Shown here: positions 2,895 through 36,199 of the stretch, piece after piece | Layout: the number at the start of each line of letters is the position of its first letter | Position numbering within the stretch: the first letter of the stretch is position 1 | Source of the DNA: Escherichia coli | Lineage (GTDB): Bacteria > Pseudomonadota > Gammaproteobacteria > Enterobacterales > Enterobacteriaceae | DNA length: 64,000 nt | Assembly: GCF_003790525.1 (NCBI RefSeq) | Contig: NZ_CP033635.1 | Reading direction: 5' to 3' (one strand) | Program-made: the position numbers and the translations under genes | The notes under the pieces: model-generated | Database searches by the model: none | What the model saw: only the letters and a program-made list of their open reading frames with translations | What the model was told of the DNA's origin: nothing

Positions 2895-2964
2895 TTTGAC
2901 GAGGGCGCGTAATTGCCCCAATCTCATAGGATAATCGTTGCCAAAGGCCAACGAGCCAGAACAT

Positions 2965-3008
2965 AACCGTAGGCCGGATAGGGCGTTCACGCCGCATCCG
3001 GCAGCCGT
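2965..3008. repeat. REP (repetitive extragenic palindrome) element in the yhdP-tldD intergenic region
   Basis: Sequence gtaggccggatagggcgttcacgccgcatccggcag matches the REP consensus (GCCGGATG...CATCCGGC palindrome). Confidence 0.7.
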
Positions 3009-3034
3009 AAAAAATCCTCTACTGCAGTAACTAA

Positions 3035-4495
<1,461 letters not shown>

Positions 4496-24725: not shown

Positions 24726-26058
<1,333 letters not shown>

Positions 26059-26204
26059 ACGTATTCGCTCAGGCAGGGGGCGCTGGTTGGGAACTCAACG
26101 TTGGCATGGTTTCGCTGCTCTTGTGTAGATGTGTTGCAGTTATTTGCGACATTCCGCCGGAGTAGCGGAACTATGGAAAACGGCAATTGGCGCTCTTATC
26201 CCTT

Positions 26205-26236
26205 AGCTTTGTAAGGCTTAATTTTGGTAGAATGGG
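26205..26236 (+). promoter_or_regulatory. Candidate sigma70 promoter with extended -10 (TGgTAGAAT) for the AT-rich two-gene module
   Basis: TGGTAGAAT at 26225-26233 seen directly; the -35 is weak (TTGTAA or TTAGCT with non-ideal spacing). Confidence 0.35.
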
Positions 26237-26264
26237 GAATCGTTTAACGGAAAAAAACAATCAG

Positions 26265-26759
26265 ATGATTTCTTTTCTATCCGATGAATTTGAGGAATTT
26301 CCGCAGGGAGATTTTTTAAATCATCTCTATAGGTTTTCGGTAGACCATCATCATTTTATCGTGATATTTAGCCCTATTGATATTAGCGATGCGGAGTACC
26401 ATCAATACCGTAGCGAGGAAGTTGGATTTGAAATCCCAACTAATTGTTTTGATGTGAAATTTGATAGGCAAGAAAACTTTGATAGTGGTAACTTTTACAT
26501 GCCCCCCGCCGCAACTGAATGCTCGAGGCGCAGACGCTTTACTGATGAACTCGCAGAGGCGCTAGCAACGATTATTGAAAAGCATTACATCATTTATCAT
26601 GCCAGGGCTTATCTTGCCATCGCAGAGAATGACAAGTTGAAACGTTACTATGACCGGATTTTACACAATGCCCCGGCTAATGTAGCATATAGAGTAATCA
26701 AAGATGTTGGAGAGGAGGAACGAGGTTATGCCATACAAACCGAATGTTTCCGAACTTAA
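26265..26759 (+). CDS. Hypothetical acidic protein (~164 aa from ATG 26265; alternative starts 26232 or 26187), no recognised domain
   Basis: Single long ORF in an AT-rich (~40% GC by eye) segment; MISFLSDEFEEFPQGDFLNHLYRF...; no motif I recognise; start ambiguous, weak RBS. Confidence 0.6.
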   Translation: MISFLSDEFEEFPQGDFLNHLYRFSVDHHHFIVIFSPIDISDAEYHQYRSEEVGFEIPTNCFDVKFDRQENFDSGNFYMPPAATECSRRRRFTDELAEALATIIEKHYIIYHARAYLAIAENDKLKRYYDRILHNAPANVAYRVIKDVGEEERGYAIQTECFRT

Positions 26760-26874
26760 GAAAATGACTGTTGCAGAGCGCAAGAAAGAAGCCATGCGCC
26801 AGCTTAAAGCATCCTTTGAGCGCGCCAGCATTGAAGGGACTTTGCATAAACGCTCTGCAAAGTCTGTTGCGTAA
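26728..26874 (+). CDS. Hypothetical small basic protein (48 aa), overlaps the 3' end of the preceding ORF by 32 nt in another frame
   Basis: Strong RBS GAGGAGG 7-13 nt upstream of ATG 26728; MPYKPNVSELKKMTVAERKKEAMRQLKASFERASIEGTLHKRSAKSVA; below the ORF-track length cutoff, found by reading. Confidence 0.5.
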   Translation: MPYKPNVSELKKMTVAERKKEAMRQLKASFERASIEGTLHKRSAKSVA

Positions 26875-26888
26875 TGAAAGATTTCAAT

Positions 26889-26914
26889 AACCCGCTGCGG
26901 CGGGCCTTTTTTTG
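26889..26914. terminator. Rho-independent terminator 15 nt after the small ORF (possibly bidirectional, facing the convergent VWA gene)
   Basis: cccgctgcggcgggcctttttttg: GC stem plus T7 run. Confidence 0.75.
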
Positions 26915-27095
26915 CCCTCAGAAAATCCCCTCTGACCTGCCTCAGGGATTATATACAACCTTCAGTTAATTAGCTGCGCACCATACGCGGCCCGAGCCTT
27001 ATCGCCTTGTTCAAATTCGACAATTCGTCGGCCAATTTCCCCGAACGTCGCGGTGCTAAGTACCGTATCCGTCCGGGCGTATCCGGCCAGAATTT

Positions 27096-28265
27096 TCAGG
27101 CGGTTTCTCTTGCTGTCACTACGCCATTTTGCGCAGCCCACAGATTCACATCTTCCTTACGAATGGCGGCGGCCATCATGCCGGGGAATAAATCTGGGGT
27201 ACAGGCAAAGGAGGGAATACCCATGGCGGCGAGTTTTCCTGCCAGTGACCGGTCGTAAAACGGCGCACCTTCATCGCTTAAGGCCAGCAGGGTAACCACC
27301 TGTACGCCGGACTGAATCAACTCACTGGCGCGTTGCAACAGATTGCGTTCCACCCCGCCTTCGTAGAGGTCGGAAATCAGCACCAGAATGGTATTGCGCG
27401 GATCGCGAATCAAAGACTGGCAGTAGCCCACCGCGCGGTTGATGTCGGTGCCGCCACCCAGCTGTACGCCAAACAGCAGCTCTACCGGATCGTCGAGCTT
27501 CTCTGTCATATCAACGACTGCGGTGTCGAAAACCACCAGATGCGTTTTTACCGCCGGGAGCGATGCCATTACTGCGCCAAAAATACTGGAATAGACCACC
27601 GAGGAGGCCATCGACCCACTCTGGTCGATACATAAAATGATCTCCTTTTGCGTGCGTTGAGACTTGCGCCCGTAGCCGATCAGCGTTTCAGGAACAATAC
27701 TTTTATACTCTTCCTGCCAGTGGCGCAGGTTGGCGCGAATGGTGCGCTGCCAGTCAATTTCCGCGTGGCGCGGGCGACGATTACGTACCGCACGATTAAG
27801 AGCGCCGCTTACCGCGCTACGCATTGGCTCTTCAAGCTGTTTCATCAATTGCTCGACAACTTTACGCACCACAAGCCTGGCGGTTTCTTTGGTTTTGGCC
27901 GGAATTACGCCATTCAGCGACATCAGCGTGGAGACCAGATGAACATCAGGCTGGACGTTTGCCAGCATCTCCGGCTCCAGCAACATACTGTGCAAATTAA
28001 GACGTTCAAAGGCGTCTTTTTGCATCACCTGAACCACAGAAGAAGGGAAATACTGGCGAATATCACCCAGCCAGCGAGCGACTTTGGGTGACGATCCACC
28101 CGTGCCGCCGCGTAATCCATGTTTACCCTCTGGCTGATACAGCGCCGCCAGCGCGGCATCAATCGCGGACTCTCTGGCATCCAGCGCCACGTTACAGGCA
28201 TTGTCGGCATCTTCTCCAAGGATCAGACGCCAGCGGCGCAGCCGTTCCATTTCGTTACTCGACAT
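27096..28265 (-). CDS. von Willebrand factor A (VWA) domain protein with complete MIDAS motif (389 aa); fifth gene of novel operon
   Basis: DQSGSM (DxSxS), GGGTD and LISDLYEGG motifs seen in the translation; start overlaps the upstream gene's stop by 11 nt. Confidence 0.85.
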   Translation of the reverse strand: MSSNEMERLRRWRLILGEDADNACNVALDARESAIDAALAALYQPEGKHGLRGGTGGSSPKVARWLGDIRQYFPSSVVQVMQKDAFERLNLHSMLLEPEMLANVQPDVHLVSTLMSLNGVIPAKTKETARLVVRKVVEQLMKQLEEPMRSAVSGALNRAVRNRRPRHAEIDWQRTIRANLRHWQEEYKSIVPETLIGYGRKSQRTQKEIILCIDQSGSMASSVVYSSIFGAVMASLPAVKTHLVVFDTAVVDMTEKLDDPVELLFGVQLGGGTDINRAVGYCQSLIRDPRNTILVLISDLYEGGVERNLLQRASELIQSGVQVVTLLALSDEGAPFYDRSLAGKLAAMGIPSFACTPDLFPGMMAAAIRKEDVNLWAAQNGVVTARETA

Positions 28266-30504
28266 GATTTTCCCTTTCGTGTGGTGGCAAAGCCAGAATG
28301 CGGCGCAGTAGCGGCAGCATTAACGCGGCACGCTGTTCATCCCATATACCGCTGGTCTCTTCTTGCTGCGCGACACGCTCGCCCTGCGCGGCGCGTTCGC
28401 CTAACTGGCGGCGTTCCGGGCTGGAAAAACGGCCGAATGTCCGCCGCAGCATCGGCAGGATCCGGGTGAAGTGATTGTCGTTCAGGCCGCTTAGCCAGGC
28501 ATCGATCAACTGCCATAATTCGCTATTGTGCAGTAGCACCATCGCGCTGTCGTTGAGGAAACCTTCCGCCCATGCGGCACTTTCCGCCGGGGGATTGGCT
28601 GGCGATAGCGCCAGGTTCATCAGCGTGCTGATCCGTTCTGTCGTTAACGTTTGCAGATCAAACAACAGGCGCGTCGCCGTTCCGCGAAGCAGCGCGTGTG
28701 CGGTACTGCCCTCTGCCAGCACCATCAACGCCTGCAACCAGCCCGCCAATAGATCTTCGTTATCCAGCAACCGCAGCGCGGCGTGGGCGTCGATAACTTT
28801 TTCTCTCATACTGGCGGCGCTGTCGTCGTTGAGCGCCGAACAGGCTCCGGGTAGGGCGATGGCGGCGCGCGGGGCGAGGCTCATCAGTACCTGCATTACC
28901 ATACCAGAGTCGGTCTGGCGCACGTTGCCGTAGCGGACAATCGCCACCAGTGGTGCCAGGGCTTCCAGCAACTGTTCGATATTGCCCTGAGTGGCAGCCA
29001 GTGATTCCAGTGTATTGGCGATGGGGGCAATCGCGGTCTGTAAATCGGCCAGTAGCACCTGTTGGATAAGCTTTGCCAGTTCCGGCAGCGTGCTGGCGTA
29101 TTGCGCCCTCACAATGGCATAGCGGGAGCTGGCCTGCTCAATGCTGTTACCCCAACGGCTGGCGGTAATGATGTTGATTGCCAGTGCCGGTTCCCAGCGC
29201 AGCGACCAGACTTCGTGGAACGTCCCTTTGCTGTTATTTCCTTGTCCAGCCAGACGGCCCCAGGAAATGTCGAGTAAGGTCAGGCGATGCAGTAAATGGC
29301 TACGCGCCAGATCGCCGGGTTTGCGCAGATCAAGATCCAGCACTTTTTCGCTGGCTTCTGCCTTCAGGCGCAGCGTTTTTTGCTGTTGCGTAATGTCGCG
29401 TTGGAGCGGCACGACGGGCGTATCATCCGGTACGCTTCCCAGCGCGTCGCCGACAATTAACTTCTGGCGAATCATCTGCATTGGCGCGCTTTCGCCCATA
29501 CACACTACGGTTTGCAGCGCTTCGCAAAGTTCGTCAAGCCCCGGCTGCGGGTGATGGCGCATAATCGCCAGCGTCTGCGCCAGCCGCGCCGCTTCGATAA
29601 TGTGGGCGCTGGAACAGTCGAGATCGGCTTCGCGAAACAGCCTTGCCGCGCGTGACAGCCAGCCGATATCGCGGTGAGAAGCGCCCTGATAACGCCACAG
29701 ATGATCGTACCATTCCGGTGACACCACCCCTGCGCCATAACCGCTGGCGCGGCTTAACGCCTCGTAGCTCCAGGGCGTCCAGGCTGCCGCGACCTTGCAC
29801 TTCGGCAAATTTTTCAGCAGTTCGTTATCATTCTTTGCGGGCGGCAGGTTTTCCAGCGCCGGAACGTGCCACGCACCGCAGACTACCGCGATGCGCGAGA
29901 AGCCCTCTTTTTTCGCCTGACGTAGCGTCTTGCGCATATACGCTTCACGCAGTTGATCTCTGGCTGAGTTTCGGGCTTCGGGAGTTGCCTGGCGTAGGGC
30001 AATCATCGCCTCGCGAATCGCCTCGAACAGAGACAAATCATCTTCGCGTTCCTCTACTCTGTGGCTCCACCAGCTTTCCCCATCGGTGTAACCGGCGGCG
30101 CGGCCCAGCCAGTCCAGCGGATCGCCGTCGGGACTGGCTTCAACGGCATCATCGTCATCGCTCTCTTTTTCGTCATCAAGCGCGAACTGATGACTGATGG
30201 GCAAGTCCATAAAGCGCACGGCGATATTTTGCTCAAAACCATAGCGCAGCGCCTGCCATTCCGGGGAGAACGCCGCAAAGGGGTAAAACGCGGCGTGATG
30301 TGAGTCGTCCGGGGCATAAATCAGTAGCGCGACCGGCGGTTGCATCTGTTCATGCTGCATAAAAGGCAGGATGGATTCGCCGTCGGGCGGCCCTTCCACC
30401 AGCAGGCAGTCGGGCTGTAGCGTCTCCAGCGCCTTTCGCAGGCTGCGCGCGCAGCCAGGGCCATGGTGACGGATGCCAAACAAATGAACGGTTTGTTCAG
30501 TCAT
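28255..30504 (-). CDS. Large hypothetical protein (749 aa), no motif recognised; fourth gene of novel operon
   Basis: Uninterrupted 2.25-kb ORF; AAGG RBS in the 17-nt gap after the AAA+ gene; acidic stretch DDEKESDDDDAVEASPDGD; helical Leu/Ala-rich C-terminal half. Confidence 0.8.
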   Translation of the reverse strand: MTEQTVHLFGIRHHGPGCARSLRKALETLQPDCLLVEGPPDGESILPFMQHEQMQPPVALLIYAPDDSHHAAFYPFAAFSPEWQALRYGFEQNIAVRFMDLPISHQFALDDEKESDDDDAVEASPDGDPLDWLGRAAGYTDGESWWSHRVEEREDDLSLFEAIREAMIALRQATPEARNSARDQLREAYMRKTLRQAKKEGFSRIAVVCGAWHVPALENLPPAKNDNELLKNLPKCKVAAAWTPWSYEALSRASGYGAGVVSPEWYDHLWRYQGASHRDIGWLSRAARLFREADLDCSSAHIIEAARLAQTLAIMRHHPQPGLDELCEALQTVVCMGESAPMQMIRQKLIVGDALGSVPDDTPVVPLQRDITQQQKTLRLKAEASEKVLDLDLRKPGDLARSHLLHRLTLLDISWGRLAGQGNNSKGTFHEVWSLRWEPALAINIITASRWGNSIEQASSRYAIVRAQYASTLPELAKLIQQVLLADLQTAIAPIANTLESLAATQGNIEQLLEALAPLVAIVRYGNVRQTDSGMVMQVLMSLAPRAAIALPGACSALNDDSAASMREKVIDAHAALRLLDNEDLLAGWLQALMVLAEGSTAHALLRGTATRLLFDLQTLTTERISTLMNLALSPANPPAESAAWAEGFLNDSAMVLLHNSELWQLIDAWLSGLNDNHFTRILPMLRRTFGRFSSPERRQLGERAAQGERVAQQEETSGIWDEQRAALMLPLLRRILALPPHERENHVE

Positions 30505-30521
30505 AGTGGTTGCCTTGCTGA

Positions 30522-31616
30522 TTACACAATTTCGCGGCAGGCGCGATAGAGATCGTTCCAGTCGCTGCGCTCTTTGACTATAGTTTCCAGATATTCACGC
30601 CATACCACGTCGTCCTGCACGGGATCTTTTACCACCGCGCCGATAAGGCTTGCGGCGATATCCCGCGGATGTAGCACGCCGTCGCCAAAATGGCCCGCCA
30701 GCGCCATACCGTTGTTGATAACGGAGATCGCCTCCGCGGTGCTGAGAGTACTGGTTGGCGACTTAATTTTCGTTTTGCCGTCAACCGTCAGGCCGTTTCG
30801 CAGTTCGCGGAAGATTTGCACGACTCGCTGGATCTCTTTAAGCGCTGGCGGTTCGGCAGGAAGTGCCAGCGCCTGACCCAGTTCGGCGACGCGGCGAGTG
30901 ACAATGTTAATCTCTTCTTCTTCGCTGGCGGGTACGGGCAAAATGACCGTGTTGAAACGACGTTTAAGTGCGGAAGAAAGCTCGTTAACGCCTTTATCCC
31001 GGTTGTTGGCGGTGGCGATAACGTTAAAGCCGCGCGTCGCCTGGACCTCTTCATTCAGTTCGGGGATAGGCAGCGTTTTTTCCGACAGGATCGTGATCAG
31101 CGTGTCCTGAACATCGGCAGGAATACGCGTCAGCTCTTCTACGCGGGCAATCTGCCCGCGTGCCATCGCCCGCATCAATGGGCTTTCTACCAGCGCCGAA
31201 CGTGACGGACCTTTAGAGAGCAACTCCGCGTAGTTCCAGCCATAACGCATTTGTTCTTCACCGGTGCCTGCGGTGCCCTGAATAATTAACGTTGAGTCGC
31301 CGCTGATGGCAGCCGCCAGATGTTCAGAGACCCAGGATTTCGCAGTGCCGGGTACGCCATACAACAGCAGTGCGCGATCGGTTGCCAGCGTGGCAACGGC
31401 GGTTTCGATAATCCGCCTGTTGCCGATATATTTCGGCGTGACCTCAAAACCATTTTCCAGTTGCCCGCCTAACAGATAAGTAGCAACGGACCACGGAGAA
31501 ATAGCCCAGTTTTCCGGGCGCGGATGAGTATCGTTTTTTTGCAGCTCATCCAGTTCTTCTGCAAATTGTTGTTCGGCATGTCGGCGTAAAACGGCGGCAG
31601 TAGCGGTGGAAGTCAT
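30522..31616 (-). CDS. MoxR-like AAA+ ATPase (364 aa from ATG 31616); third gene of novel operon
   Basis: Walker A LLLYGVPGTAKS (GxPGxAKS, MoxR-type), Walker B-like IARVEELTRIPADVQ, sensor-1 NVIATANN, Arg finger LKRRF; ATG overlaps the upstream stop as ATGA. Confidence 0.85.
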   Translation of the reverse strand: MTSTATAAVLRRHAEQQFAEELDELQKNDTHPRPENWAISPWSVATYLLGGQLENGFEVTPKYIGNRRIIETAVATLATDRALLLYGVPGTAKSWVSEHLAAAISGDSTLIIQGTAGTGEEQMRYGWNYAELLSKGPSRSALVESPLMRAMARGQIARVEELTRIPADVQDTLITILSEKTLPIPELNEEVQATRGFNVIATANNRDKGVNELSSALKRRFNTVILPVPASEEEEINIVTRRVAELGQALALPAEPPALKEIQRVVQIFRELRNGLTVDGKTKIKSPTSTLSTAEAISVINNGMALAGHFGDGVLHPRDIAASLIGAVVKDPVQDDVVWREYLETIVKERSDWNDLYRACREIV

Positions 31617-33217
31617 AAAGTAGTTTCTCCGACAAAAAACGAATGAAGTTGAATTCGGTGCGCCAGCGTGGCGCTCAGGGCAGTAAAGGCTGCCTCGCAA
31701 TAAGGCGTTTGTTGTGCGTCATGCGGCCACTTGTCAATGACATCATTGAGGACTTCGGGGGCCAGCAGGCAGGCGAAATCACTCATCACATGGCGCAGGG
31801 CGTAGTCAAAGCGCGCGGAATCATGTTTCACCCAACGGTGCAGCTCCGTGACCATTTGCTGGCTCAGGCGCAGGCTAAAGAGCGACGCATCCAGCGGTAA
31901 CAGGGCGATGTAGCGTTGTAAATGTTCGCCGCCCATTACCGAGAACAGTAACGTCAACACTGGCTCGTGTTCTTCTACGGGCAGGCATTGCAGAAGCTCA
32001 AAGGCGTTAATCTTCACGCCAGCAGGGGAATGAATGCTTATTCCGACGGGGAGTAGGGCGAGGAATGCCTGCGCCCACTGTGGATTTTTTTCGCGCAGGA
32101 CGGCGTGATACCAGGCGCGCAGTAGCGCCTCCTGCCAGTCGGTTTTCCCGGCCCAGCGCAGCAGTTCAACGGGGGTAGCCTGCAGTTGCGTTTGCCACCA
32201 GTCGAGCGGAACCGCTGCAACTATCTGATACAGCCACCATGCGCGCTGGCCCAACTTTTCGCCTTTGGGCTTAGTTTCTTCCAGCGCATCGGCCTTCCAC
32301 TCTGGTAAGAACGCCTCCGGGGCATCAAGGGCGACGCGCAGCATTTTTTCTTTGCCGGATAAGCCTTTTAGCCTTTCAAGTAAGGTCTCAGGAGCGGGGG
32401 ATGAACTGAGCAACGGCGCTAACCGAGACTTCATGCGCGAGATCCAGGCGCTTTCCGGCAGACAACACAGTAACCGTGCCGCAGTTTGCCGCACCTCTTT
32501 GCTGCGATCGGATAATGTCTGTTCCAGAAAGGCTTCGTCGTGTTGGGAGATCCCCACTTCCAGCACAGCCAGCAGCTGTGCGCGTTCGCGGGCATCCAGC
32601 GAACTCATCTCCTGCGCCAGCCGATCGCGACCCTGTTCCGGGGCGCGAATGCGCATTTGCGTCAGATATTGCAGACGCTGTTCGGACGTGCCGTGCAGCC
32701 ACATTTCTTCATCCAGCGGAGCGTCAGTGGAGGCGAGAACATAGCCCCAATCGGCGTTGATTTGCGCCAGCCAGCACCCGCGAGCGCCCAGAACATTGGA
32801 CAGGATGCCGCGTAGAGATGGCTTTTGCGCTCCATAATTCAGCAATGCTGGTAACAGCAGGGGCGGAGGAAGAAGTTGACGACGGACCAATAGATCAAGC
32901 GCCGACCACAGCAACCGCGGCGGTCCTTCTGACAGCAGCAGATGCAGCAGTCCCGCAAAAGCCGGGTTGTTTATTGGCTCGGCATTTTCTTTATCGATTT
33001 CCGGCAGCGGTGCGGGGTCAATCGCCTGCGGCACCCAGCCAGCCAGATGGCAGAGCGCCAGAACGCCCGCCGAGCGCAGTAGCTGTTGCTCTGCGGATGT
33101 GTTATTCGCCAGTTCAGACAGTAACAGCCCAATCTCACTTTGCGACGCCGACGGTGTAAACGCTTTTTTGTCTGTGCCGAGTAGCGCTGTGCGGGTTAAA
33201 TTTTGCCATTCGTTCAT
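31613..33217 (-). CDS. Hypothetical alpha-helical Leu-rich protein (534 aa from ATG 33217; 541 aa if 33238); second gene of novel operon
   Basis: Long ORF; ATG at 33217 forms an ATGA overlap with the SWIM gene stop; Leu/Ala/Trp-rich repeat-like sequence; no catalytic motif recognised. Confidence 0.8.
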   Translation of the reverse strand: MNEWQNLTRTALLGTDKKAFTPSASQSEIGLLLSELANNTSAEQQLLRSAGVLALCHLAGWVPQAIDPAPLPEIDKENAEPINNPAFAGLLHLLLSEGPPRLLWSALDLLVRRQLLPPPLLLPALLNYGAQKPSLRGILSNVLGARGCWLAQINADWGYVLASTDAPLDEEMWLHGTSEQRLQYLTQMRIRAPEQGRDRLAQEMSSLDARERAQLLAVLEVGISQHDEAFLEQTLSDRSKEVRQTAARLLCCLPESAWISRMKSRLAPLLSSSPAPETLLERLKGLSGKEKMLRVALDAPEAFLPEWKADALEETKPKGEKLGQRAWWLYQIVAAVPLDWWQTQLQATPVELLRWAGKTDWQEALLRAWYHAVLREKNPQWAQAFLALLPVGISIHSPAGVKINAFELLQCLPVEEHEPVLTLLFSVMGGEHLQRYIALLPLDASLFSLRLSQQMVTELHRWVKHDSARFDYALRHVMSDFACLLAPEVLNDVIDKWPHDAQQTPYCEAAFTALSATLAHRIQLHSFFVGETTL

Positions 33218-34536
33218 TGTGCGCCTCCGGTTGCCCAAATGACGCTACCGGCAAGCCAGGCGCTACAGGGCGTCAGCTGCTGACCATCCCATTCCCCCAT
33301 TAGCATAAACGGCGCGCCGCCGCTGGCCGCCAGTAACCGCCAACCCTCGTCCGACGACAGGTGCGTCGGTAAGTGCTGGCCCTGTGTCGAGACGAATCGC
33401 CAGCCGCTCTCGTGCGGGTAAATCAATATTTCGCTTACTCGCAGCGGCAGAGGCCATTGCCAGGGATTCGCGCTAAGCCGCTGCGCCATGTCATGCAGCG
33501 CGTCCGGGAGGGGTAATTCTGCAAGCGGGAATCTTTCACCGCGGGTAAACGGCTCCACAACCCGCGCCCGTAGCGGTGATGCGCCAGGGAAAAAGGCAAG
33601 CGCGCCCTGGCAGACTTGCCCGGTGATAAAGTGCTGGGGAAAGTTTTTACTACCGTGTGAATAGTCCAGCAGTAGCGCGGTGCGGTGGCTCTTTTCTCCG
33701 TACAGCCAGACCCGGCGTCGCCACAGATTATTCCCTTCTTGCGCGCTTTGACCTAAGACCTGCCAGTTATCGAGGCAGGTTAATCCGTCAGTGACGTCGT
33801 GTTTATCCGGGGGTATTCCCAATGCCGCATGGAGATCGCTAAGTTGTGCCGGGGATAACATTTGTTGCTGGCGCCAGGCGTCAATAATCAGCTGTAGCTG
33901 CCCCAGTTCTTTGCACAGGCTCGATGGCCATACCTCGGCGGTAGTAAAATGAGTGGTCAGATTGTTCAGGCGAGCGGCAATTCCCGGTAGTTGGGCGTCG
34001 ACCATGCGGGCGGCGATCCCGGCAAAAGGCAACTGTTGTGCAGAGATCTGCGCCAGACCGTGGCGGATCAGGTCGTGCATCCACTGTTCGAGGAAATCCA
34101 GCCCCGCCGTCATTTTTTGGTTGCGTGCCGCTTCCCGTTTGGCGGCAGCCTGCGGGTCGGCAGCTTTTGCCTCAGCCTGCTCTTTCTTCTCTTCTTTGCG
34201 AACCGCCCGCTGCTGGCGCGAGGTTAGCCACTCGCTTACCCATTCCGGCGGCTCGCCAGCGGTGAAACTTGCGGTGTGTTGCACCTGGAGAAAAAGCAAC
34301 GCAAGGCTATGTTTACAGGGGAATTTACGGCTGGGGCAGGAACATTTACAGGCCAGATCCTGTCTGTCGATTCGTACCTGATAAGGGCGGGAGCCGCTAC
34401 CTTTACACTCTCCCCAGAAGGCAGCCTCGCTATATCCGAGCGTCGGCCATTTTGCGGGAGCAACCAGGCCACGAGCCGCTTTAACCGAGGCGTCATCGGG
34501 CGCCAGGGCTTGCACTGATTCAACGGTCAGTTCCAT
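33214..34536 (-). CDS. SWIM zinc-finger domain protein (440 aa); first gene of novel operon
   Basis: CxCxnCxH signature at residues 63-76 (ACKCSCPSRKFPCKHSLALLF); first ORF downstream of gltD on the same strand. Confidence 0.85.
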   Translation of the reverse strand: MELTVESVQALAPDDASVKAARGLVAPAKWPTLGYSEAAFWGECKGSGSRPYQVRIDRQDLACKCSCPSRKFPCKHSLALLFLQVQHTASFTAGEPPEWVSEWLTSRQQRAVRKEEKKEQAEAKAADPQAAAKREAARNQKMTAGLDFLEQWMHDLIRHGLAQISAQQLPFAGIAARMVDAQLPGIAARLNNLTTHFTTAEVWPSSLCKELGQLQLIIDAWRQQQMLSPAQLSDLHAALGIPPDKHDVTDGLTCLDNWQVLGQSAQEGNNLWRRRVWLYGEKSHRTALLLDYSHGSKNFPQHFITGQVCQGALAFFPGASPLRARVVEPFTRGERFPLAELPLPDALHDMAQRLSANPWQWPLPLRVSEILIYPHESGWRFVSTQGQHLPTHLSSDEGWRLLAASGGAPFMLMGEWDGQQLTPCSAWLAGSVIWATGGAQ

Positions 34537-34721: not shown

Positions 34722-34760
34722 TTATCCCGTGTAACCCGTTTTAAGCGGGCTACACGGGAG
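34722..34760 (-). terminator. Hairpin downstream of gltD (candidate terminator or attenuator)
   Basis: Inverted repeat cccgtgtaacccg / cgggctacacggg 10-45 nt after the gltD stop; the trailing U-tract on the minus strand is interrupted. Confidence 0.4.
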
Positions 34761-34768
34761 GCTGCAAT

Positions 34769-36199
<1,431 letters not shown>

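Follow-up and report, generated by a model that had tools for sequence, protein, structure and literature searches.

Bidirectional terminators have been described between convergent genes of E. coli (Ju et al. 2019, as cited in preprint 10.1101/2022.10.23.513370), and single-molecule work presents the hairpins between convergent units as sites of both pausing and collision (preprint 10.1101/2022.10.23.513370). A candidate example at the locus considered here is the K-12 hairpin between yhcG and nanQ, ATTCTGCAGAC-ACT-GTCTGCAGAAT. We analysed a 64,000-nt stretch of E. coli DNA from contig NZ_CP033635.1 (hereafter the window), in which one hairpin likewise lies between two converging transcription units. 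This hairpin differs from the described cases in that it was imported, is oriented to serve one strand and lies 180 nt from the stop codon of the converging operon, so that it is not closely shared.

In K-12, the interval between gltD and nanQ is occupied by gltF-yhcADEF-yhcG. The window instead carries, in place of gltF-yhcADEF and between gltD and yhcG, a rare operon with the same domain set as K-12 yehL-yehM-yehP-yehQ (MoxR AAA, DUF5682, VWA, SWIM), which lies elsewhere in K-12. The VWA protein of the window is 38% identical to YehP and the DUF5682 protein 27% identical to YehM. The order of the genes is not the same, the SWIM and DUF5691 genes coming at the start instead of at the end. The window operon is a distant paralogue of yehLMPQ. 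A literature search for DUF5682 or DUF5691 found no papers.

Layout and distribution of the junction

The plus strand of the window carries nanA, nanT, nanE, nanK and nanQ (= yhcH), which end at position 26058 (RefSeq, Pfam and ORF list), followed by two hypothetical genes at 26187–26759 and 26728–26874 that correspond to what an earlier note on this DNA had called an AT-rich module (GC 39–44%). Converging on them from the minus strand is the VWA_CoxE gene, the last gene of a five-gene operon with the order SWIM, DUF5691, MoxR AAA (AAA_5), DUF5682 and VWA; gltD occupies 34769–36187. The stop codon of the 48-aa ORF (TAA, 26872–26874) and that of the VWA gene (TGA, 27098–27096, minus strand) enclose a gap of 221 bp (26875–27095), in agreement with the ~220 bp estimated earlier. 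A relic of yhcG accounts for about 112 bp of this gap, and non-coding DNA of an imported cassette for about 53 bp (26915–26967). The features of the junction are as follows.

26728–26874, plus strand: 48-aa ORF, the distal gene of the cassette (RefSeq WP_012311706.1)
26791–26829, minus strand: imperfect hairpin, a candidate second-line stop for minus-strand transcripts, antisense inside the 48-aa ORF (ΔG −14.1 kcal/mol, then UUCUUUCUU)
26889–26914, plus strand: intrinsic terminator of the cassette (consensus scan, folding and conservation)
26915–26967, plus strand: non-coding tail of the cassette (aligns with the homologous loci L010–L014 past the terminator)
26962–27141, minus strand: 59-aa ORF, most likely not a gene (ORF list and BLASTP)
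26966–26969, no strand: joint between cassette and yhcG relic (cassette homology ends at 26968, yhcG homology at 26966–26967)
26968–27079, minus strand: relic of yhcG (DUF1016/PDDEXK nuclease), about codons 25–67 (BLASTP, DNA matches and RefSeq)
27074–27079, minus strand: deletion joint, a CGCCCG microhomology within an imperfect repeat of ~18 bp, CTGGYCG(G)ATA(G)CGCCCG
27080–27088, minus strand: half of the operon terminator, comprising the 5′ arm GGCCGGA (27082–27088) and the start of the loop (alignment with genomes L003 and L004)
27096–28265, minus strand: VWA_CoxE gene (Pfam PF05762, E 2.7e-52; RefSeq; similarity to K-12 YehP)

Positions 26100–27500 are 100% identical to the chromosome of E. 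coli SMS-3-5 and to 14 other complete genomes among those listed. The VWA gene of the window type is present in 33 of 5,426 complete E. coli genomes, and the short junction arrangement in 28 of the 5,426. The segment between nanQ and the VWA gene (26059–26965) was likewise found among the complete E. coli genomes in 28 only, in all of them at an identity of at least 99%.

A halved operon terminator at a probable deletion joint

The earlier note had seen no obvious terminator immediately after the VWA stop, an observation in which a consensus scan, folding and a lenient hairpin-plus-U scan all concur; the RNA folding across the junction that it had proposed as a check returned no hairpin-plus-U terminator at this stop. 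What that reading missed is the origin of the gap, which is made up of a gene relic, a halved terminator and the tail of a cassette.

Longer arrangements survive among the 33 genomes with the VWA gene. In four of them, including NZ_AP027764.1 (L004, strain 2017-02-2CC), the gene is followed by a 198-bp intergenic region, an intact yhcG and a convergent nanQ, and in one, NZ_CP151004.1 (L003), by the intergenic region, a frameshifted N-terminal fragment of yhcG, a transposase gene and nanQ. Both L003 and L004 carry GGCCGGA-TACGCCCGC-TCCGGCC 8 nt past the same TGA, followed by TTTTTT in L003 or TTTTTATTT in L004. With its 7-bp G+C-rich stem, folding energies of −12 and −13 kcal/mol and a run of five to six U residues, this element reads as a canonical intrinsic terminator, a textbook example of the Rho-independent terminators of Enterobacteria. 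In the window, the operon terminator is reduced to its 5′ arm: the 3′ arm and the T run have been deleted, and no complete terminator is present after the VWA stop. When folded, the surviving arm takes part in a new, imperfect hairpin of 8 bp; this hairpin, with UACGGUACUUAG after it, is no terminator.

The window matches L003 through the VWA stop and the 5′ arm as far as CGCCCG (100% over 127 bp) and then resumes at codon 25 of yhcG, the joint reading CTGGCCGGATACGCCCGGACGGATACGG. Compared with L003, the window lacks 249 bp between two copies of CGCCCG, and compared with L004, 256 bp. The lost stretch contained the rest of the terminator (3′ arm and T tract), the last part of the island, and the promoter region and codons 1–24 of yhcG. 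Because the yhcG promoter and 5′ codons are common to K-12, L003 and L004, the polarity of the change is loss in the window lineage; and because the window and L004 have an identical island boundary on the gltD side, one acquisition followed by a secondary deletion is the simpler history. The 127 bp are identical to L003 but the relic beyond them is only 83% identical to the yhcG of L003 and L004, which indicates that the true ancestor is not among the sampled genomes. The joint could instead reflect illegitimate recombination between non-sister sequences and not a simple intrachromosomal deletion.

The sequence past the joint is what remains of yhcG. RefSeq annotates 26968–27090 on the minus strand as a DUF1016 pseudogene 'missing N-terminus and C-terminus', BLASTP aligns the relic with residues 22–67 of K-12 YhcG at 70% amino-acid identity (E 1e-16, five residues missing), and at the DNA level 26966–27091 has yhcG matches in about 4,300 E. 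coli genomes out of 5,426. In chromosomal position, and in strand with respect to gltD and nanQ, the relic corresponds to K-12 yhcG, but it retains only ~11% of that gene (~37 codons), the promoter, start codon and nuclease domain being gone. It carries an internal 15-bp deletion, and it gave no Pfam hit. At the DNA level, where three alleles were compared, it is 88% identical to K-12 yhcG and 83%, as noted, to the other two; the alleles differ by 8–12% among themselves over the same stretch, a divergence that softens the objection to a simple deletion raised by the mismatches of the relic. A search with the relic peptide for a closer yhcG allele returned nothing beyond the 59-aa ORF itself and a single fragment of 67 aa.

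An imported two-gene cassette with its own terminator

On the nanQ side of the relic, foreign DNA begins directly after the nanQ stop, homology to one related locus (L010) starting at ~26127 and a conserved promoter-like TTGTAA-17-TAGAAT lying at ~26209–26234. The larger of the two cassette proteins, annotated in RefSeq with 190 aa, belongs to a small orphan family; since most members have 162–165 aa, its likely start is the ATG at 26265, giving 164 aa. The 48-aa ORF overlaps this 164-aa ORF (26265–26759) by 32 nt, and an overlapping 48-aa ORF is called in 10 of the 12 homologous loci examined. The two-gene unit recurs in contexts that have nothing in common: between cstA and entH in Kluyvera, between aminotransferase and crp-like genes in a contig with a 162-aa protein similar to one of Morganella morganii, beside a phage-type integrase, and on plasmids of Yersinia, Serratia and Klebsiella; homologous cassettes also occur in metagenome contigs. 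Searches against Pfam, NCBIfam, PADLOC and PHROGs gave nothing significant for either cassette protein or for the 59-aa ORF, and a phage collection contained no homolog of the 164-aa protein, which shows a weak GNAT-like fold similarity that includes acetyltransferase toxins.

Past the cassette terminator, homology to L010–L014 continues to CAGTTA (26963–26968) and then diverges exactly where yhcG homology begins. The joint reads CAACCTTCAGTTAATTAGCTGCGC, in which 2–3 bp (TTA) are common to the two sides and leave the exact breakpoint ambiguous. The hairpin ATTCTGCAGAC-ACT-GTCTGCAGAAT that separates yhcG from nanQ in both K-12 and L004 is absent from the window.

The earlier note had identified a single clear terminator beside the small ORF, an observation that holds, and this terminator belongs to the plus-strand module. 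Between nanQ and the VWA gene, a distance of 1 kb, the consensus scan calls one terminator only, at 26891–26913 on the plus strand, and it is conserved with the cassette in other species and on plasmids. Its stem-loop, CCCGC-TGCG-GCGGG (26891–26904; five G-C pairs, a 4-nt loop, ΔG −9.6 kcal/mol on the plus strand), starts 16 nt past the TAA of the 48-aa ORF and is followed by a CC spacer (26905–26906) and T7 (26907–26913). The short all-G+C stem, the tetraloop, the T7 and the distance from the stop codon resemble Rho-independent terminators of Enterobacteria, whereas the CC dinucleotide that separates stem and T run in the window copy does not. Despite this 2-nt spacer, T7 qualifies as the U tract within the tolerance of the consensus scan, although the tail score is lowered. 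The spacer is peculiar to the window copy, all other cassettes having T at those positions, and the replacement of T by CC slightly weakens termination in the plus direction.

On its own, the pattern scan does not exceed chance, with 5 sites where shuffled sequences gave 8.0 ± 3.1; the support for this terminator is comparative and comes from its conservation with the cassette. Among the 11 homologous cassettes examined, some with ~50% protein identity, 10 carry a CCCGC-N3-4-GCGGG hairpin plus T run, placed 15–25 nt past the small ORF, and in the eleventh (L009) another hairpin plus T run occupies that place. The loops of the conserved hairpins differ (TGCG, TACG, AAAT, CACG, AGCA, TGAG), while the stem is invariant across the cassettes and offers no covariation evidence. 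Since hairpin and T run are conserved with the cassette elsewhere, the terminator arrived with it.

The cassette hairpin read from the operon side

The earlier note had further proposed that the same hairpin, read in the minus direction, is followed by a T-rich tract and may terminate both units. The tract is there, the reverse complement of 26877–26890 being exactly ttattgaaatcttt. As a minus-strand RNA, the tail past the hairpin reads UUAUUGAAAUCUUU, a marginal U tract: the A tract that precedes the stem on the plus strand is only AAUAA, and the minus tail accordingly begins UUAUU. The first two of these U residues can form G-U wobbles, which leaves AUUGAAAUCUUU as the remaining tail, so that the minus stem comprises either 5 G-C pairs or 7 pairs including two G-U wobbles (ΔG −7.8 to −10.5 kcal/mol). 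Discriminant values, which are rough numbers from the d'Aubenton-Carafa formula with modern energy parameters, are about 2 and 4 for the two directions, both borderline; on the same rough scale, the minus direction scores +4 with the 5-bp stem and −16 with the G-U-extended stem. The consensus scan did not call the hairpin on the minus strand.

The strongest competing account holds that 26891–26904 is a true bidirectional terminator that acts efficiently on both transcripts and leaves no meaningful antisense read-through. The G+C stem does fold on both strands, the minus tail does open with UUAUU, and in one relative of the cassette (L015) the element is fully symmetric, reading A7-stem-T7. Hairpins of convergent genes have moreover been reported as pause and collision sites at which both transcripts end without canonical U tracts (preprint 10.1101/2022.10.23.513370), so some two-way termination is possible if the cassette is transcribed. 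Several points speak against this account: the hairpin came in oriented for the plus strand, the A tract before it amounts to AAUAA, G-U pairing of the first two U residues shortens the tail to AUUGAAAUCUUU, the minus strand goes uncalled in the consensus scan, and termination driven by collision requires active transcription of the cassette. We consider an efficient two-way terminator unlikely, while termination of both units at this hairpin appears possible but weak.

What the minus-strand transcript would meet further on was also considered. Because no hairpin with a U tract stands at the VWA stop, operon transcription is expected to run on for ~180 nt to the reversed hairpin. Beyond it, the imperfect hairpin at 26791–26829 was found only by the lenient hairpin-plus-U scan and falls below the criteria of the consensus scan. 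The minus-strand RNA is G-rich in the junction (C/G 0.6–0.8), and the earliest C-rich, G-poor windows suited to Rho loading are at 26775–26656 and 26495–26416, inside the cassette. Since these downstream stops and C-rich windows lie where they do, any read-through would yield RNA complementary to the 48-aa ORF and the 3′ part of the 164-aa ORF; such antisense transcription of the cassette is plausible.

The gap as a regulatory RNA or a small gene

A second alternative is that the gap encodes a selected functional regulatory RNA, derived from the 3′ UTR or acting as antisense. Some 180 nt of untranslated RNA would trail the VWA stop, and minus-strand 26915–26950 forms a local hairpin. The segment has no significant Rfam family: a search of 25900–27400 on both strands at E ≤ 1 gave anti-hemB as the best match, with E 0.48 and 17 bits against a threshold of 49.5 bits, which is at chance level. 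Its folds are no more stable than those of shuffled sequences (z −0.55 to −1.85), and with fold z-scores so unexceptional the structured-RNA reading was rejected. The segment is, besides, built from a gene relic and imported DNA and is confined to a narrow set of near-identical genomes that yields no comparative signal. A selected regulatory RNA is thus very improbable.

The 59-aa ORF is a chimera of 15 codons that lie out of frame in the 3′ end of the VWA gene, a 6-nt spacer, and the half-terminator and relic in frame, with its stop in cassette-derived DNA. Most RefSeq records listed label the region a pseudogene, and at least two a 'hypothetical protein'. That this ORF is a genuine sixth gene of the operon, encoding a small protein on an extended transcript, is barely credible: the frame is open from a GTG, runs on the same strand as the operon past the VWA gene, is called a hypothetical protein in some RefSeq records and is listed in the protein database as a 59-aa hypothetical, but its residues 18–58 derive from YhcG in decayed form, five codons having been deleted, its beginning and its stop belong to the VWA gene and to unrelated cassette DNA, its frame is owed solely to two rearrangements, it has no Pfam hit and is mostly annotated as a pseudogene, and among the complete E. 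coli genomes searched it is confined to the 28 near-identical ones that carry both rearrangements. As a gene it was rejected, being composed of three unrelated pieces.

Discussion

Collectively, our results indicate that the junction is very probably a composite scar at the yhcG locus and not a designed convergent terminator region. It represents ordinary genome decay at a rearrangement-prone locus, and its elements are all of known kinds. The ancestral order would have been gltD, the five-gene operon with its own terminator, the yhcG promoter, an intact yhcG, the bidirectional hairpin and the convergent nanQ, an arrangement that survives in four E. coli genomes such as NZ_AP027764.1. In the SMS-3-5-type lineage, two events, in either order, then appear to have destroyed yhcG. 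One, a deletion of ~250 bp between imperfect direct repeats at CGCCCG, would have cost yhcG its promoter and codons 1–24, and the operon terminator its 3′ arm and T tract; the other would have replaced yhcG codons 68–375 and the yhcG/nanQ hairpin with ~910 bp of foreign DNA (26059–26967), apparently a self-contained cassette with its own promoter, the 164-aa and 48-aa ORFs, a terminator and a 53-bp tail. No genome was found that carries just one of the two events.

For transcription, the scar would have several consequences. The operon transcripts probably run for ~180 nt through the relic, which would serve as an accidental 3′ UTR, and reach the cassette hairpin in the reverse direction. Some of them may end at it, by way of its weak U tract or because polymerases pause and collide head-on with converging ones, and the others would continue antisense into the cassette until the hairpin at 26829–26791 or Rho ends them. 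The earlier suggestion that the junction leaves room for an extended 3′ UTR or antisense read-through thus stands in part: read-through is a reasonable concern for an operon without a terminator of its own, but the supposed room is a yhcG relic, half a terminator and the tail of a cassette. Loss of the terminator may even couple the two modules, with antisense RNA from the induced operon modulating the cassette by transcriptional interference or RNA duplex formation, although we consider such coupling improbable.

For annotation and interpretation, neither a regulatory 3′ UTR nor a purpose-built bidirectional terminator is an appropriate reading of the gap. The locus provides a small, clear example of how rearrangements at a variable site can strip transcription units of their terminators: with the operon terminator and the nanQ/yhcG hairpin both lost, the nan operon, the cassette and the MoxR-VWA operon have a single imported hairpin left between them. 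In SMS-3-5-type strains, a long and heterogeneous 3′ end of the operon is accordingly to be expected in expression studies, for which strains with the intact arrangement, such as NZ_AP027764.1, offer a natural control.

A mobile two-gene cassette and its terminator

The AT-rich module beside the minus-strand operon is a mobile orphan cassette of two overlapping genes, and its copy in the window differs from the others examined at two bases next to its terminator stem.

26265-26874, plus strand: two-gene cassette encoding proteins of 164 and 48 aa, with a 32-nt overlap between the genes
26905-26906: CC, two bases 3′ of the cassette's terminator stem

The cassette recurs in Kluyvera, on a contig with a Morganella-like homolog and beside an integrase, and plasmid-borne copies are found in Yersinia, Serratia and Klebsiella. 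Searches of Pfam, NCBIfam, PADLOC and PHROG returned no match for either protein. An AlphaFold model of the 164-aa protein (pLDDT 73, pTM 0.73) gave only weak Foldseek matches (E 0.0085-0.3, TM ~0.4); all of the best 25 were GNAT acetyltransferases, the toxins AtaT and KacT among them. Possibly the larger protein is GNAT-like but strongly diverged, and the 48-aa product is its small partner. At the terminator, the CC separates the T run from the stem and permits two extra G-U pairs in the minus-strand stem; in all other cassette copies examined, the corresponding positions are T, making CC particular to the window copy.

Structures flanking the cassette and the neighboring operon

26105-26175, plus strand: long, imperfect and very stable hairpin between the nanQ stop codon and the cassette promoter
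27096-34536, minus strand: five-gene SWIM/DUF5691/MoxR/DUF5682/VWA operon
~34726-34758, minus strand: hairpin with 13-bp arms, CCCGTGTAGCCCG-CTTAAAA-CGGGTTACACGGG, directly 3′ of the gltD stop codon

Upstream of the cassette, a 141-nt fold containing the first hairpin reaches -54.9 kcal/mol (z -4.1), with no U tract on its 3′ side. Because the K-12-type terminator hairpin of the nan operon is lost in the window, this structure may matter for the 3′ ends of nan transcripts.

The five-gene operon is rare, occurring in 33 of 5,426 complete E. coli genomes, and is a distant paralogue of K-12 yehLMPQ, from which it differs in gene order. PADLOC models yielded no match to it except a marginal IetA hit to the operon's ATPase. 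Beyond it, the 13-bp-arm hairpin is present in strains carrying the island, whereas K-12 lacks it, and is a candidate for either the gltBD terminator or the island's left end.

Variability at yhcG

Locus L003 (NZ_CP151004.1) 2952-3701: transposase gene and frameshifted yhcG fragment

In this other strain, these sequences occupy the equivalent yhcG position in place of the cassette. Between strains, yhcG alleles diverge by 8-12% over 127 bp, and the yhcG locus appears both rearrangement-prone and unusually variable.
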